From: a phage
Reading direction: 5' to 3' (one strand)
NCBI GenBank assembly: GCA_037431425.1
Contig: GCA_037431425.1_4129.1
DNA: 64,000 nucleotides
The notes beneath the pieces were generated by a model. The model ran no database searches, was not told the DNA's origin, and saw only the letters and a program-made list of their open reading frames with translations. Shown piece after piece: positions 3,017 to 58,573 of the stretch; position 1 is the stretch's first letter; the number at the start of each line of letters is the position of its first letter. The translations under genes were made by a program, and so were the position numbers.

Positions 3017-3409
3017 ATGACTAAATCTGAACTATATGAAATGATAGATTTCATTTATGAAATGGTACAGGATGAAAAACACATCAATACTATTGGATCA
3101 GGTCCAAGACAAATTGGTAACCAAATGACATATTCTTTGTCCTTATGGTTACACCAACAATTCAATGTTGATTGTTTGTATTTCCGTCCTGATATTGGTG
3201 CATATTATTTTGTCAATTATGATGCACTAATGAAACAAAGCAAGCGACCAGTTGATGAATCATTTGTTACATACCCATTTTACCTTGCTGAATCAGAGGA
3301 AGATGAATTTCAAAAAGAAACCGTTTTAAGCAAAGGCGAAATTTGTATCCCTTACGCACTTAAAGATAAAATGATTTACATCACAGAAGTTATGAAAACA
3401 TGCTGGTAA
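3017..3409 (+). CDS. EE-x-FQ-x-ST motif family protein, 130 aa
   Basis: AAGGA SD; C-terminal SEEDEFQKETV motif shared with paralogues. Confidence 0.75.
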   Translation: MTKSELYEMIDFIYEMVQDEKHINTIGSGPRQIGNQMTYSLSLWLHQQFNVDCLYFRPDIGAYYFVNYDALMKQSKRPVDESFVTYPFYLAESEEDEFQKETVLSKGEICIPYALKDKMIYITEVMKTCW

Positions 3410-3456
3410 GTGCAATGAAACTCAGATATAATACTATGACTTACTAAGGAGAACAT

Positions 3457-4026
3457 ATGAACTTTATTAAATTCAACACATCTGAGTCAGAAGCATACTT
3501 TAATACAAATAATAAATTTAATATTATTCTTAAAGACGGAACGGTTGTTATCGGAGTATCATTGCTTTCATTTGATGGCGAAAAACTCGAAACTGTTTAT
3601 AAATTCACCAATCTTGATGGTGATTATTGGGATACATCAGATGTATCTAAAATTTGCACACATTATGTATTTGAATCTATTGAAGTTGGTGATGGCTGGG
3701 CATTGACCTGCAATGGTAATAAAGTATTTTCTGGTAACATATTTGGGGTAATTTCCAGTAAAGAAATAGTAGACCATCATCTTCATGTTCTCAATAATAA
3801 CGCCAACACTTATACACCTGATAATATCAAAATTCACGATATTGTAACATATATTGATTATAATGGTTTCAGACATAAAGCAATTGTAACTGAAATTAAA
3901 AAACCAAAAAATTATTTCGATCACGGTTTGATTGAAGTATATATGGTAGGTGGCGAAAAACAATACTTTGAACATTTCACTTATACTGGTTGGGATAGAT
4001 TCCTAACCGTTATTGAGGAATACTAA
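3457..4026 (+). CDS. hypothetical protein, 189 aa
   Basis: AAGGAGA SD; long ORF. Confidence 0.8.
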   Translation: MNFIKFNTSESEAYFNTNNKFNIILKDGTVVIGVSLLSFDGEKLETVYKFTNLDGDYWDTSDVSKICTHYVFESIEVGDGWALTCNGNKVFSGNIFGVISSKEIVDHHLHVLNNNANTYTPDNIKIHDIVTYIDYNGFRHKAIVTEIKKPKNYFDHGLIEVYMVGGEKQYFEHFTYTGWDRFLTVIEEY

Positions 4027-4027
4027 C

Positions 4028-4516
4028 ATGCCGATTCGTGGTGTACCAGACCCAATACGTGAAATTCTTAAGCACATTCGCATTGAAACACTAGAAGTTA
4101 ACATGCGTCGTTATAATATATATTACTTTAAAACTTCCGAAATGAGTTCTGTACAGATTGTCATTGGTACATCTATTAAGATTACTCGTGTACTTGATGG
4201 CAGTACTGACTTTGTTGAATACAACGTACTTACTAATAAAGTAACACATACATATAAATGGAGTGGATATAAAACTATTAAATATGAGTTTGACTTAGCT
4301 AGAACCGAAGAAGAACGATTCATGTTGAGTACTATAAATCCAGAAAACTATCCTGACATTGATACATTTTTGCTAATTTTAAAATTGTATAATAAAGCAA
4401 ATGAGAAAGCTAAAGAGTACAATAGAATCATGTATGAACGCAAAAAAGAACGTGTACAAAAAAGTTATGATCTGTATGATAACCCATACGTGAAATATAG
4501 TAAGGGAAAGAAATGA
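4028..4516 (+). CDS. EE-x-F-x-ST motif family protein, 162 aa
   Basis: track ORF trimmed to ATG 4028 after upstream stop, GAGGA SD; motif TEEERFMLSTI. Confidence 0.7.
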   Translation: MPIRGVPDPIREILKHIRIETLEVNMRRYNIYYFKTSEMSSVQIVIGTSIKITRVLDGSTDFVEYNVLTNKVTHTYKWSGYKTIKYEFDLARTEEERFMLSTINPENYPDIDTFLLILKLYNKANEKAKEYNRIMYERKKERVQKSYDLYDNPYVKYSKGKK

Positions 4517-4917
4517 ATAATGAAGTTCAAATTATCATTACTCCACCTATACAAAGTCTGGATGTAACCATTAGTGATTTTTTGGAAAAATACTATGAAT
4601 GGTTTAATGAAGATTCAGTCATTTATAACCATTCATTACCTGATGGTTTCGTTGAGCTTATTGAATTAAATGCCAAATCACTATACTTCTGTGTTGAATA
4701 CAATGATTATATGACAGATGAAGCATATCGTTTTCGTTGTACATTGTATCCTAACCATTTTTCCATTGGTTATAAAGACTATCAGTACTGCACCACAAAC
4801 TATAGTGTAGAGGAAGAATTTCAGTACAATTTACTTTATCCTGATTTAGATTATACGATTGCAGTACTGTTGACTAAAATCATGGATTTTTATAAAGATA
4901 AATATAATGCAGCCTAA
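4513..4917 (+). CDS. EE-x-FQ motif family protein, 134 aa
   Basis: ATGA overlap; motif VEEEFQYNLL. Confidence 0.7.
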   Translation: MNNEVQIIITPPIQSLDVTISDFLEKYYEWFNEDSVIYNHSLPDGFVELIELNAKSLYFCVEYNDYMTDEAYRFRCTLYPNHFSIGYKDYQYCTTNYSVEEEFQYNLLYPDLDYTIAVLLTKIMDFYKDKYNAA

Positions 4918-5092
4918 GACATTCGATGAGTGGTATCAAATACATTACAATATAAATGCAGCAGATATATACTATTTTAAGCTTGAATTGTATATATCAT
5001 TGCGTGACCCAGTTGAGTACTATAACAACATTATCAATTGTGATGATTTTGGTACATATTTTAGTATTGCAGTTATGGATAAAATAAGATGA
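4907..5092 (+). CDS. hypothetical protein, 61 aa
   Basis: overlaps upstream end; coupled to next gene (ATGA). Confidence 0.55.
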   Translation: MQPKTFDEWYQIHYNINAADIYYFKLELYISLRDPVEYYNNIINCDDFGTYFSIAVMDKIR

Positions 5093-5259
5093 CACACAAA
5101 GAATGGTTAGATGAACTAAAGTTCAAACATGATCATTTTGGCCTTGGTATACGCCAGAGTCATTATGATGTGTTAAAAGATAAACAACTTTTCAAATCAT
5201 TAGTACTTGATGAGGATAGTAATCACTGGTACATCTATGAGCTTGCGGTTAGAGATTAG
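5089..5259 (+). CDS. MTHxEW mini-protein family member, 56 aa
   Basis: translated by hand (MTHKEWLDELKF...); below track cut-off; N-terminus matches three paralogues at 6345-6831. Confidence 0.55.
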   Translation: MTHKEWLDELKFKHDHFGLGIRQSHYDVLKDKQLFKSLVLDEDSNHWYIYELAVRD

Positions 5260-5269
5260 AAGATATAGT

Positions 5270-5482
5270 ATGAGAGTAATTATTAATCCTACAAAAAGTT
5301 TTATGTCATCAGTTTACGGTGCTGATGATATTATCCGCATGTTACCACGTATTGAAATTGATGGAATTGAAGTGCGAAAATACGGTGATTTATATTATGT
5401 TGTAGATTCCAATGGTGAAAAGATCTGTGATAGCTTATTCTTCAGTACTGAAGAAATGGAACACCTAATTATAATTGACTAA
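5270..5482 (+). CDS. hypothetical protein, 70 aa
   Basis: track ORF 5207 trimmed to ATG 5270 downstream of previous stop. Confidence 0.55.
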   Translation: MRVIINPTKSFMSSVYGADDIIRMLPRIEIDGIEVRKYGDLYYVVDSNGEKICDSLFFSTEEMEHLIIID

Positions 5483-5488
5483 CAAAAA

Positions 5489-57128: not shown

Positions 57129-57136
57129 GGTACTAT

Positions 57137-57322
57137 ATGAATACATTTGAGTACTATACCAATAAACTATCTATGCCTGAAAGATCTCATCTCTATGTGT
57201 GGAGAAATGCGTATAAAAACGGAAATAAACTTATACAAAGAAATTCCCTTACAGTGTGTACCAATTTAATTAACGCAGAGTACCGCACATATATTGAAGT
57301 ACTGAAACTCATCTCTATCTAA
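57137..57322 (+). CDS. small tandem-array protein (LKLISI subtype), 61 aa
   Basis: MNTFEYYTNKL..EVLKLISI. Confidence 0.65.
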   Translation: MNTFEYYTNKLSMPERSHLYVWRNAYKNGNKLIQRNSLTVCTNLINAEYRTYIEVLKLISI

Positions 57323-57330
57323 GGTACTCT

Positions 57331-57510
57331 ATGCAAGAATTCTATATCTATAATCTCCAGCACAAAGATAGATACAACTATAATCAATTCCAAAGGTACT
57401 ACACCGTCGGGAACATCAAAGATAAAAAACGATACCTACTATCATGTACTGTAGATGCACAAAACAAAAAGTACACGTACAGAGAAGTACTGAAACTAAT
57501 TTCTATTTGA
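57331..57510 (+). CDS. small tandem-array protein (LKLISI subtype), 59 aa
   Basis: hand-translated MQEFYIYNLQ..EVLKLISI; below track cut-off. Confidence 0.6.
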   Translation: MQEFYIYNLQHKDRYNYNQFQRYYTVGNIKDKKRYLLSCTVDAQNKKYTYREVLKLISI

Positions 57511-57518
57511 GGTAATAT

Positions 57519-57707
57519 ATGAATACTTTTGAGTACTACTTCAATAAACTAAATTCCATAGAACAAAATATGTACAATTCATATATTAAGTACTATCAAT
57601 CATCTGCACCTGGAATTAAAAATATATCAATAAAGATTATCACTAACCGTGTACTGACATCTGAACGTTATATGTATATGGATGCACTGAAACTCATCTC
57701 TATGTAA
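57519..57707 (+). CDS. small tandem-array protein (LKLISI subtype), 62 aa
   Basis: MNTFEYYFNKL..DALKLISM. Confidence 0.65.
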   Translation: MNTFEYYFNKLNSIEQNMYNSYIKYYQSSAPGIKNISIKIITNRVLTSERYMYMDALKLISM

Positions 57708-57717
57708 GGAATAAACT

Positions 57718-57897
57718 ATGAACAATTTCTATATAGAACACATAACCATAAAAGACCGTTTCATGTACGACACCTTCGTGAAGTACTACAACCTCGCAAC
57801 TAACAGTACTAAAAATATCAATCTCAATAGCTGCATACACCAAGCACTAACAAAAGAAAATCCCTTCAGGGAAATCCTTGCACTTGCATCTGTATAA
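57718..57897 (+). CDS. small tandem-array protein (LKLISI subtype), 59 aa
   Basis: hand-translated MNNFYIEHIT..EILALASV; below track cut-off. Confidence 0.55.
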   Translation: MNNFYIEHITIKDRFMYDTFVKYYNLATNSTKNINLNSCIHQALTKENPFREILALASV

Positions 57898-57907
57898 AGG
57901 AATTCAA

Positions 57908-58573
57908 ATGAAACTTAATCCACAAAGTAAACAATACCTTAAGCACTTTAAGTACCTCAACAGTATTCAAGCAGAATCTATTACATCTTCTTATACTTAT
58001 CACCCGAATATACTAAAGAAACGAAATAAAAAGAATAAATCCAGTACAGATCTAGTATCAAAGAACCTCAAATCGTACTTGAAGAAAAATAATATCTCTA
58101 TTCATTGTGCGAATATCTATAATACTGATTTAAAAGCATTGAGTACTAATACCAGCACAAAAACACTAAAGAATACATCTATCTATATCTATATGCACCT
58201 GGATAATATCCCGTGCACTATAATTCTATCTTTCGGGAATGTATACTTCTTCGGGAATTGTAATACCACCCATGATATCCGTACAGCACAATTCCAAATC
58301 GGAGATATGTACTGCATGGGTTCAGAAAAAATACACGATAACATGCATTTCTTCCAACAGCAACGTACAGAAGAAACTAATACAGTACTAGAATTCCTCA
58401 AAGAACTTCAAAACAAAGAATTATCTCAAGAAGAACTATTCATGTACAGCACCGTAATCAATAATCCAGAACTCTACAAAAACGCGTACAATCTAACAAA
58501 ACATGTGCAGGAACTTATTAGTACTAATAAGAAAATTCATCACCTCATGACATATATTGCAAACTATGCATAA
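57908..58573 (+). CDS. long-form EE-x-F-x-ST family protein, 221 aa
   Basis: trimmed to ATG 57908 with AAGGA SD; basic N-terminus; motif SQEELFMYSTV. Confidence 0.7.
   Translation: MKLNPQSKQYLKHFKYLNSIQAESITSSYTYHPNILKKRNKKNKSSTDLVSKNLKSYLKKNNISIHCANIYNTDLKALSTNTSTKTLKNTSIYIYMHLDNIPCTIILSFGNVYFFGNCNTTHDIRTAQFQIGDMYCMGSEKIHDNMHFFQQQRTEETNTVLEFLKELQNKELSQEELFMYSTVINNPELYKNAYNLTKHVQELISTNKKIHHLMTYIANYA

Follow-up and report, generated by a model that had tools for sequence, protein, structure and literature searches.

Does a short peptide motif that recurs near the C-terminus of otherwise divergent proteins mark a true protein family, and if so, is it a portable module or part of a larger domain? 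This question is raised by a 64,000-nucleotide stretch of phage DNA (hereafter the window), which derives from an Asteriusvirus jumbo coliphage and shows 97.7% nucleotide identity to phage ph0011. The original prediction named 14 open reading frames (ORFs) by start position and motif peptide. All of them are present on the plus strand, each with the start and peptide quoted, and we use the start positions as gene names.

Fourteen motif-bearing genes and their kinship

An unanchored MAFFT alignment placed the motifs of all 14 proteins in a single block of columns, and in 12 of them the motif starts 31-45 residues before the C-terminus. Leave-one-out profiles were compared with 2560 (C-terminal segment) or 1550 (full length) shuffled ORFs. 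With either type of profile seven of the 14 members scored above all shuffled ORFs, and at full length 12 had at most 13 decoys above them. An independent profile, trained on 69 non-orthologous members from other genera and from a second array in phage 121Q, ranked 12 window members first to twelfth, ahead of all 1240 decoys and of the 110 remaining real ORFs; one of the 12, gene 8024, was matched away from its motif. Moreover, an iterated HMM search of 824 ORFs and 2472 shuffled sequences converged at 120 members without a single decoy, and within the window it returned exactly the 14 predicted genes.

Recurrence by chance, or through compositional bias of an AT-rich genome, would be in line with the observations that BLASTP by itself connects only the quartet 10005/10414/11430/11855 and that HHalign assigns less than 50% probability to pairs from most subfamilies. 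This reading is already refuted by the shuffle and independent-profile tests described above and by the DNA-pattern search and structural models described below, and we give it practically no credence. Without the 11 motif residues, profiles made only from window paralogues found nothing. Together with the low HHalign probabilities, this means that the whole-domain homology of the most divergent members (3017, 8024, 4513, 46602 and 57908) rests on the motif, its position, charge and predicted architecture.

The members differ accordingly in how firmly they are placed. Gene 3017 (3017..3409; 130 aa, pI 4.7; motif SEEDEFQKETV at 3293-3325) reached a leave-one-out E value of 0.017 with none of 1550 decoys above it and 70% HHalign probability to 8024, and its orthologues bear the canonical FQKSTV; it was not recovered by an independent C-part HMM trained on non-orthologous members. 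For gene 8024 (8024..8401; 125 aa, pI 4.3; DEADEFQKRTV at 8282-8314), three decoys scored above the leave-one-out match (E=0.4), and the independent C-part HMM matched residues 47-69, outside the motif; its relative P0129 has DEFQKSTV. Judged by these scores, 8024 is a probable divergent member, and 3017 and 8024 are the weakest members in the window.

Gene 4028 (4028..4516; 162 aa; TEEERFMLSTI at 4304-4336) has a basic C-terminal extension and a pI of 9.4 for the whole protein, and was detected with E values of 0.0014 (leave-one-out) and 7.6e-5 (independent C-part HMM). Its stop codon overlaps the start (ATGA) of gene 4513 (4513..4917; 134 aa, pI 4.2; (S)VEEEFQYNLL at 4804-4836), which the independent C-part HMM placed at rank 10 (E=0.006) with all decoys below. 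The shortest member, 6903 (6903..7256; 117 aa, pI 4.5; TEEEYFQMSTV at 7149-7181), was found by the same HMM with E=8e-9 and at rank 3 (E=0.027) by an N-part HMM; HHalign connects it to 11855 (67%) and 31121 (58%).

Five members between 10005 and 12668 had been described as a tandem row. All five genes stand, but the row is not unbroken: unrelated small ORFs at 10789-10980 and 10980-11264 intervene. The archetypal gene 10005 (10005..10421; 138 aa, pI 4.3; TEEKFFQYCLV at 10293-10325; E=1.9e-7 and 2.6e-11 with the independent N-part and C-part HMMs, respectively) overlaps 10414 (10414..10779; 121 aa, pI 4.4; TEESLFQYSTI at 10669-10701; E=6.8e-7 and 1.6e-9) by 8 nt, and the two proteins are closely connected by BLASTP (E=2.7e-13) and HHalign (98%). 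Gene 11430 (11430..11846; 138 aa, pI 4.5) carries the degenerate motif TEDMYMQLNFV at 11721-11753, ranks fifth with the N-part HMM and is connected to 11855 by BLASTP (E=6e-5) and HHalign (97.5%). Gene 11855 (11855..12259; 134 aa, pI 4.4; NEDMFFQLSTV at 12152-12184) is linked by BLASTP to all other members of the quartet and matched the independent C-part HMM with E=5.8e-9. The fifth gene, 12261 (12261..12668; 135 aa, pI 4.8; TEEEHFMDSTV at 12546-12578), matched the latter with E=3.1e-6, and no 11-aa window is better conserved among its orthologues than the motif (rank 1 of 139).

The dispersed member 26017 (26017..26535; 172 aa, pI 5.0; TEESVFQQSLI at 26368-26400) scored above all decoys in the leave-one-out test (E=0.0011) and matched the independent C-part HMM with E=1.1e-5. 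The three remaining genes are long forms, for which a lysine-rich N-terminus had been proposed; indeed, their N-terminal 60-90 residues carry a net charge of about +14 to +16.5 and contain a disordered tail. In 31121 (31121..31693; 190 aa; NDEEYFQESTV at 31556-31588; independent C-part HMM E=1.2e-5) the basic tail comprises residues 1-60 (net +16.5) and is predicted to be disordered, followed by an acidic core of pI 4.8. Gene 46602 (46602..47249; 215 aa) combines a basic N-tail (+16.5) with an acidic core of pI 4.3 and has the weak motif PSDLMFQYSLI at 47103-47135. Its orthologue P0135 (43% identity) has the canonical SEEQLFQYSLI, and the independent C-part HMM placed 46602 at rank 11 (E=0.012), with all decoys below. 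Gene 57908 (57908..58573; 221 aa; SQEELFMYSTV at 58424-58456) likewise consists of a basic N-tail (+13.7) and a core. It ranked first in the leave-one-out test of the C-terminal segment (E=0.0012) and ninth with the independent C-part HMM (E=0.0019), and was not recovered by the full-length leave-one-out profile. This gene is located within an array of ~60-aa paralogues.

Extent of the family

The wider profile searches revealed further relatives and paralogues beyond the window, and the family is far larger than the 14 genes first noticed. Phage 121Q harbors at least 41 copies: the 14 orthologues of the window genes and, at 160-201 kb, no fewer than 27 others (breakdown 14 + 25 + 2-4). The second 121Q array was found in 36 Asteriusvirus records. 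The family signature, [TS]-E-E-x-[YFL]-F-Q-x-S-[TL]-[VIL]-x-[DN], also marks tandem arrays in contigs as long as RaK2, GAP32 and CBB and in metagenomic jumbo-phage contigs. A degenerate DNA pattern of the motif gave 17 matches in IMG/VR, 16 of them in jumbo-phage contigs of 345-378 kb. At each of these 16 sites lies an acidic ORF of 117-184 aa with the motif 35-58 aa before its C-terminus, and tandem arrays were found in the flanks; such agreement in size, charge and motif position argues against chance recurrence. When 1.84 billion representatives were searched exhaustively with the 14-sequence profile, only 22 proteins reached E<=1e-3, all of them relatives of window members or additional motif-keeping paralogues (P0130, P0131, P0133 and P0136), and the named matches of a related search were exclusively Asteriusvirus phages or E. 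coli assemblies. The 14 genes are members of a single lineage-specific family that has undergone massive expansion in jumbo phages of the RaK2/121Q/GAP32/CBB type.

Copy number varies among relatives: the quartet locus of Turkey5 holds six copies in tandem, and in UE-S1 the 3017 orthologue is split. Compared with 121Q, members show a median identity of 80% versus 85% for neighboring genes (p=0.04). This faster divergence is only marginal (p about 0.03-0.04), too slight to demonstrate an arms race.

Domain architecture and the place of the motif

Across the 120 members the Phe of the motif is conserved in 97%, the Gln in 88% and the Ser in 81%, and the motif ranks among the most conserved windows in most orthologue groups. 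Synonymous codons vary freely within it (Phe TTT/TTC, Gln CAA/CAG, Ser AGY and TCN), indicating that the constraint acts on the protein and not on a DNA element.

To the motif region the original prediction had assigned a C-terminal module carried on variable N-terminal domains. In its strongest form, this reading assumes a portable partner-binding or targeting segment of ~40 residues on unrelated N-terminal domains that addresses one common hub. Similarity between subfamilies is indeed concentrated in the motif, whose deletion abolishes detection by window-only profiles, and the conserved positions include the polar residues E, E, Q and S, as for an interaction surface. Several observations point the other way. 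When 1364 sequences were ranked by a motif-free HMM restricted to the region upstream of the motif and trained on non-orthologous members, window members took ranks 1-5 and eight of the first 12 places. The 120 members are uniform in length (median 145 aa), in acidity and in how far the motif lies from the C-end, and a different recognizable N-terminal domain was not found in any of them.

The structural models agree with this result. The first AlphaFold2 model, of 10005 (alignment A2; pLDDT 84.7, pTM 0.78), shows a helix (5-15), seven strands (19-91), the motif helix (98-105) and a final helix (115-125). The second, of 31121 (core pLDDT 74-91), is based on alignment A3, which is disjoint from A2 and contains no quartet sequences; here, strands at 62-133 are followed by helices at 147-156 (motif) and 160-176, while a confident N-terminal helix is missing. 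Compared by order of elements, the two models agree: an antiparallel meander of 6-8 β-strands leads into the motif helix, which is followed by a C-terminal helix. The helical nature anticipated for the motif is therefore borne out in both predictions, and its Thr/Ser is likely to act as the helix N-cap. The motif helix forms part of one compact predicted domain after a β-meander of similar size, and in BFVD, Foldseek matched uncharacterized proteins of RaK2, CBB, PBECO4 and pEa_SNUABM_47.

The concordant models and the motif-free HMM together indicate that the whole unit of ~120-140 residues is one fast-diverging domain. The motif is its best-conserved helix, and the remaining sequence has drifted so far that it is hardly recognizable. 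Nothing is appended to this unit except basic tails, at the N-terminus in the three long forms and at the C-terminus in 4028. A portable module that docks onto a hub, be it host RNA polymerase, a protease, a chaperone or a phage assembly, is therefore unlikely. The domain is acidic: window cores have a pI of about 4.2-5.0 and a net charge of -8 to -14, whereas the median pI of neighboring ORFs is near 7 (family-wide medians 4.73 versus 6.03).

Genomic setting, possible role and known relatives

Some of the genes are packed closely into tandem arrays and others stand alone; they lie on the coding strand of promoter-crowded regions. The plus strand of the window carries 12 perfect and 18 near-perfect (11/12) σ70 consensus promoters and the minus strand two. 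By chance, both strands together should have 0.26 perfect promoters and 7.1 that match in 11 or more of the 12 positions. Among the promoters observed, TTGACT-N16-TATAAT (6844..6871, plus strand; 11/12) lies 32 nt upstream of 6903, and the perfect TTGACA-N16-TATAAT (9591..9618, plus strand) is located upstream of a tRNA-Thr gene (9914-9988) and of the array beginning at 10005. The strand bias was alike at all arrays examined except RaK2 locus L009 (1 vs 1). In the CBB study (PMC5259590), the corresponding promoter-rich block, made up of short hypothetical genes, was independently attributed to early host takeover. This genomic setting suggests that the family genes are probably expressed early by the host RNA polymerase.

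We tentatively favor, as an overall explanation, an expanded single-domain acidic early family of diversified binders for host takeover or counter-defense. Each member is a single small acidic α/β domain, usually with an N-terminal helix, a 6-8-stranded β-meander and two C-terminal helices, and would act as a soluble protein- or ligand-binding modulator. The invariant helix could hold the fold together or provide an interface for oligomers or a common partner, whereas each paralogue might be directed to its own target by the variable surface of the sheet and, where present, by the basic tail. Duplication, divergence and loss of genes would keep this repertoire turning over. Of the roles considered, diversified protein binding appears likeliest.

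Equally well, the polar residues that are conserved (E, E, Q, S and T) could form a ligand or catalytic site. The proteins might then be sponges for small-molecule or nucleotide signals, or small enzymes, with E-E...F-Q-x-S-T as this site in an oligomer and paralogues covering different ligands. Survival of invariant polar residues in an otherwise hypervariable family, a small, acidic, possibly oligomeric domain with p32-like element order and seemingly early genes are consistent with this proposal, but similarity to known sponge or enzyme families was not found and more than 40 paralogues per genome are hard to square with a limited set of signaling ligands, making it quite improbable. A role as packaged and ejected internal proteins, comparable to those of T4, can be weighed against the same setting. 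Here the motif ([LI]-[TS]-E...) would serve in prohead-protease processing or capsid targeting, and the long forms would use their basic tails to bind DNA inside the head. The N-tails of the long forms are strongly basic, and the motif region has a hydrophobic residue at position -6, T or S at -5 and E at -4, loosely resembling the T4 gp21 site, (L/I)-x-E. Against this, none of the 121Q members was found annotated as a virion structural protein, while neighbors gp154, 155, 199 and 201 are; the genes lie in σ70 promoter-rich early blocks and not in late structural modules; the motif is part of a helix that is predicted with confidence within a folded domain; and most members are acidic. We consider this role very improbable.

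The family is, as originally proposed, large and uncharacterized. Its members have no Pfam match, and neither PDB nor PHROG yielded an annotated homologue or one of known function. Every window member matches a separate PHROG of unknown function (E values from 1e-31 to 1e-121): phrog_17453, 35192, 24027, 34619, 22160, 33143, 32367, 38341, 28118, 33518, 34359 and 29152; PHROGs 24941, 23322, 24321, 24510, 12674, 27549, 36582 and 38195 were cross-matched at the motif region. The family is thus broken into more than 20 unannotated clusters in which motif, fold and clade-wide expansion are unrecorded, and the jumbo-phage literature searched does not describe it as one.

The element order of the 10005 model equals that of the MAM33/p32/gC1qBP fold (PF02330; PDB 3qv0, 7te3, 1yqf, 3jv1). 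Like the family cores, p32 is a very acidic small domain, and it is a multi-ligand binder. We know of no MAM33 counterpart of the TEE-x-FFQ-x-STV signature, and there is no sequence relationship (no Pfam match); the resemblance may reflect convergent topology. p32 has been described as one N-terminal helix followed by seven antiparallel strands in succession and, at the C-terminus, two helices (PMC9680082). Also near are small bacterial proteins combining a β-sheet with C-terminal helices: the TipC2 immunity protein (6dhx), the lysozyme inhibitor Ivy (1xs0) and the chaperone CpaB (6o38).

Comparable expansions in jumbo phages are known from Bacillus phage G, which has a zinc-ribbon family of ~35 copies, from RaK2 with its "~10% paralogues" and from the tandem duplications in phAPEC6/121Q (PMC7824862, PMC3622015, PMC7247149). 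For CBB, only 22 paralogous ORFs in total were counted by BLAST (PMC5259590), implying that the family was not recognized as such. What these cases share is that small genes duplicated in tandem and diverged, and so inflated a jumbo genome. The family described here differs in being built on another, unnamed domain, in reaching at least 41 copies in 121Q, and in spanning several genera, from Asteriusvirus to the RaK2-, GAP32- and CBB-type phages.

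The signature motif in the window ORFs

Nucleotide identity of the window is 97.7% to Escherichia phage ph0011 (348 kb) and 84–92% to other jumbo coliphages of the genus Asteriusvirus, a group that also takes in 121Q, PBECO4, phAPEC6 and G17. The window has a GC content of ~33%, and its genes lie on the + strand up to ~47 kb. The original prediction had quoted peptides from 14 ORFs, and all 14 are present in the window (ORFs are named here by their start coordinates). Each carries a signature helix, [TS]-E-E-x-[YFL]-F-Q/M-x-S-[TL]-[VIL], ~30–60 residues from the C-terminal end, with degenerate copies in 11430, 46602, 3017 and 8024. 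The motif starts 31–45 residues before the C-terminus in 12 of the 14, and in an unanchored MAFFT alignment the motifs of all 14 fall in register.

An all-against-all BLASTP of the window ORFs revealed links among 10005, 10414, 11430 and 11855 only. Leave-one-out profiles placed half of the members above all 1550–2560 shuffled ORFs and most others above nearly all of them; with the motif deleted, the same approach gave no signal from window sequences only, a result superseded by the cross-genus profile of the upstream region. Owing to shallow alignments, probabilities were low for most HHalign comparisons of per-member orthologue profiles. The motif belongs to the best-conserved windows in most groups of orthologues, and divergent orthologues of degenerate window copies return to the canonical form (SDLMFQYSLI of 46602 versus SEEQLFQYSLI; 3017 versus FQKSTV). 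Codons vary freely at the conserved motif residues, with both serine codon families in use. Because of this variation, the constraint must act on the protein, and a DNA-level element was ruled out as an explanation of the motif.

Independent profiles were trained on 69 members without an orthologue among the window genes, taken from other genera and from a second array in 121Q. With the C-part profile (motif plus C-terminal tail), 12 of the 14 window members occupy ranks 1–12, ahead of 1240 decoys and every other real ORF; for one of these, 8024, the match lies outside its own motif. ORF 11430 appears at rank 20 and is joined to the family through 11855 (BLASTP, HHalign), and 3017 was not found. 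The N-part profile, restricted to columns upstream of the motif, ranked 10005 (E = 2e-7), 10414 (E = 7e-7), 6903, 11855 and 11430 first to fifth and placed eight window members in the top 12 of 1364 sequences. Its matches to 4028, 31121 and 8024 are suggestive, and it gave no signal of homology in the N-terminal β-region for the other six. ORFs 3017 and 8024 are still the least secure members.

An HMM iterated over 824 ORFs from all fetched loci together with 2472 shuffles converged at 120 members without a single decoy, and within the window it recovered exactly the 14 ORFs first proposed. That the motif might be no commoner than in shuffled proteins had been named beforehand as the alternative; none of the 2472 shuffles passed the iterated HMM, and chance recurrence of the motif is the one rival explanation that is firmly excluded.

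Size, spread and turnover of the family

A profile of the 14 sequences, searched against 1.84 billion representative proteins, matched only 22 at E ≤ 1e-3; some are relatives of window members and others additional paralogues in which the motif is preserved. In a related protein search, every match with a name was an Asteriusvirus phage or an E. coli assembly, and a search for related loci that started from one protein led to 121Q alone. Protein searches reached only relatives at this level because distant members score 15–35 bits, under database-wide thresholds, and we therefore scanned IMG/VR with a degenerate DNA pattern coding for T-E-E-x-[FY]-F-Q-x-[S]-T-[VIM]. This pattern gave 17 matches, 16 of them in contigs of 345–378 kb. 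The ORFs under these 16 matches encode acidic proteins of 117–184 aa with the motif 35–58 residues from the C-terminal end, and further members in tandem arrays flank them. The only match outside a jumbo-sized contig lies at 353–1093 of L015, a 24.5-kb IMG/VR contig; this ORF encodes an acidic protein of 246 aa with HTEETFFQASTV 90 residues from its C-terminal end, and the contig may be a jumbo-phage fragment or belong to a more distant lineage.

The 120 members have a median length of 145 aa and a median pI of 4.7. Their signature reads [TS] (68%), E (77%), E (78%), E (49%), [YFL], F (97%), Q (88%; M in 11%), any residue, S (81%), [TL] (89%), [VIL] (93%), any residue and [DNE] (78%). In 121Q, 14 orthologues lie at 66–137 kb, 25 members at 160.7–185.7 kb and two to four more at 187–201 kb. 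Over the regions covered (66–137 and 158–214 kb), at least 41 of the 618 annotated features of this phage, or ~7% of its genes, belong to the family. Its second array is present in 36 Asteriusvirus records.

Close relatives differ in copy number and gene integrity. Phage Turkey5 carries six tandem copies (13642–16218) in place of the window trio at 11430–12668, and in UE-S1 the 3017 orthologue is broken into two short ORFs (2299–2692) and is likely a pseudogene. Median identity to 121Q is 80% for members versus 85% for their neighbours (p = 0.04); with a difference of just ~5 identity points, this does not amount to a strong arms-race signal.

The window also contains other paralogue arrays. 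On the – strand, seven paralogous ORFs of ~370–450 aa (47291–55969) have their N-terminal ~90 residues in common (BLASTP E down to 1e-60), and their counterparts in 121Q bear the RCC1-like annotation “regulator of chromosome condensation”. Around ORF 57908, at least 14 tandem ORFs of ~60–90 aa on the + strand (56431–60326) make up one or two small paralogue families; the same arrays are found at 131–135 kb in 121Q. Four paralogues of 54–56 aa that start with MTH(K/E)EW are located at 5089–5259, 6345–6509, 6506–6670 and 6667–6831, beside tRNA genes; three of them follow one another directly, the stop codon of one overlapping the start codon of the next. Two further small tandem sets comprise three ORFs of ~113 aa at 35041–36076 (HHalign 90–97%) and two of ~113 aa at 43776–44455 (51% identity).

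Predicted architecture and charge

The AlphaFold2 model of 10005, based on 61 family sequences (pLDDT 84.7, pTM 0.78), consists of a helix at residues 5–15, seven strands at 19–91, a helix at 98–105 formed by the motif (EEKFFQYC) and a last helix at 115–125. ORF 31121, one of three long forms, was modeled from an alignment without sequences of the 10005/10414/11430/11855 quartet. Here, a disordered basic tail precedes a core with pLDDT 74–91, in which six confident strands (62–133) are followed by the motif helix (147–156) and a second helix (160–176). The two modeled members agree in architecture, which argues that the family unit would be a single domain rather than a C-terminal module joined to unrelated N-terminal domains. 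The original prediction had favored such a shared module on variable N-terminal domains, and a rival explanation in the same vein sees the C-terminal segment as modular and hub-binding; both models and, for five members, the motif-free profile point to one domain instead.

Variable add-ons are the basic N-terminal tails of 31121, 46602 and 57908, with net charges of +14 to +16.5, in agreement with the lysine-rich N-termini originally described for three long forms, and the basic C-terminal tail of 4028. Ten of the 11 short forms have a pI of 4.2–5.0, the exception being 4028, whose whole-protein pI of 9.4 comes from its tail. The cores of the long forms have a pI of 4.3–5.7, and core net charge ranges from –8 to –14. 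Taken together, this is a real, clade-wide, highly expanded acidic family, apparently of single-domain proteins, with one invariant helix.

Genomic setting and possible roles

Twelve perfect σ70 promoters (TTGACA-N16-18-TATAAT) are present in the window, all on the + strand, with first hexamers starting at 1072, 1619, 5570, 5714, 9591, 10717, 15965, 17801, 24139, 28094, 36725 and 61028. The + strand has a further 18 with 11/12 matches, against two promoters on the – strand; by chance, the two strands together would be expected to carry 0.26 perfect promoters and 7.1 with at least 11/12 matches. One σ70-like promoter is found 32 nt upstream of 6903 and another upstream of tRNA-Thr and the array beginning at 10005. 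Gaps between tandem members range from –8 to +8 nt. Promoters are likewise enriched and strand-biased in the 121Q, Turkey5 and UE-S1 regions orthologous to the window, in the second array of 121Q and in most RaK2-type loci examined; one RaK2 locus (L009) has no promoter strand bias. This setting suggests that the window is an early region read by host polymerase. For phage CBB, an equivalent promoter-rich block of short hypothetical genes and a sigma factor has been assigned to early host takeover (PMC5259590), and by analogy the family genes are probably located in early regions.

Six tRNA genes (Ser-tga, Arg-tct, Ser-gct, Met-cat, Asn-gtt, Thr-tgt) lie among the family members at 6153–9988; at the position of tRNA-Arg(tct), 121Q has an annotated tRNA-Leu(taa). 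Terminator-like hairpins are ~three times commoner at 1–16000 than in shuffles (16 versus 5.3), and a bidirectional one at 14787–14812 separates convergent genes.

We infer that the family members are soluble binders or modulators serving host takeover or counter-defence. A rival view, that they are packaged internal proteins, is disfavored by annotation only: all 121Q members are labeled “hypothetical protein” and none as a virion protein, and some nearby genes bear the label “virion structural protein”. They have also been considered as ligand sponges or enzymes. Ten members searched against Pfam at E ≤ 1 hit no family, and no function was obtained from Pfam, a PDB sequence search or PHROG annotation, where the family is scattered over more than 20 unannotated clusters. 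Conceivable candidates such as the Nudix box, ADP-ribosyltransferase motifs, SUKH immunity proteins, helix-turn-helix, the T4 gp21 cleavage site, a TEV site and a β-clamp-binding motif have no tool result in their favor. The consensus E-E-E-Y-F-Q-x-S (positions –4 to +3) is similar to the site of TEV protease, E-N-L-Y-F-Q↓S, and the stretch Q-x-S-L-[IV] to β-clamp-binding peptides (Q-x-S-L-[LF]). Both resemblances are likely coincidental; more speculatively, likeness to a TEV-type site (E-x-x-Y-F-Q↓S) or to β-clamp peptides could be functional, with the family acting as substrates or decoys.

The view of a large, uncharacterised phage multigene family has held up, with 120 members, no Pfam, PDB or PHROG function and no mention in the jumbo-phage papers searched: the phAPEC6, Sharanji, CBB and RaK2 papers and a 2021 comparative overview contain no description of family or motif that we could find. 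Paralogy as such has been reported, with ~10% paralogous gene products in RaK2 (PMC3622015), 22 paralogous ORFs counted in CBB (PMC5259590), tandem duplication in phAPEC6 (PMC7247149) and other jumbo-phage expansions such as the zinc ribbons of phage G (PMC7824862). The phenomenon, lineage-specific expansion of small early genes, is known; the domain family is new and unnamed, and notable for its size, sharp signature and spread across genera.

Jumbo phages of the RaK2/121Q group are under development for therapy, and annotation is lacking for more than 80% of their genes. Recognizing dozens of “hypothetical” early genes per genome as one family reduces a large block of genomic dark matter to one question that can be addressed. 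Because the family has a sharp signature, a predicted fold and a uniform charge, a single structure, interaction screen and array deletion would each be informative for ~40 genes per phage in several genera. For annotators, the signature is a simple marker with which the more than 20 separate PHROG clusters can be merged. Should the members prove to be diversified inhibitors of host proteins, many new factors acting against defence or in host shut-off could be drawn from them, and the family would be a clear phage case of “accordion” gene-family evolution. In the picture of soluble binders, the invariant helix may serve as a structural or oligomeric keystone or as a common docking element, and paralogues would diversify through the sheet surface and the tails.

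Among known proteins, MAM33/p32 forms a doughnut-shaped homotrimer with an N-terminal helix, seven antiparallel strands, two C-terminal helices and an acidic face, and the family is likewise acidic (pI 4.2–5.0). Its modeled fold appears p32-like in topology. MAM33 (PF02330) is absent among the Pfam matches of 61 family sequences at E ≤ 0.1, and the Foldseek matches to viral models are uncharacterised proteins of RaK2, CBB, PBECO4 and pEa_SNUABM_47; after these matches and the Pfam, PDB and PHROG results, we do not file the family under MAM33. A wider reading, which we put forward as a conjecture that is rather unlikely to hold, is that RaK2/121Q-type jumbo phages devote ~7% of their genes to one hypervariable acidic p32-like binder family. 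On this view, every paralogue would neutralise its own host protein, whether from defence or from housekeeping, and the TEE-x-FFQ-x-STV helix would keep the scaffold or oligomer together or dock every member onto one hub. Such a family would be for phages what the known multigene families are for poxviruses and African swine fever virus.
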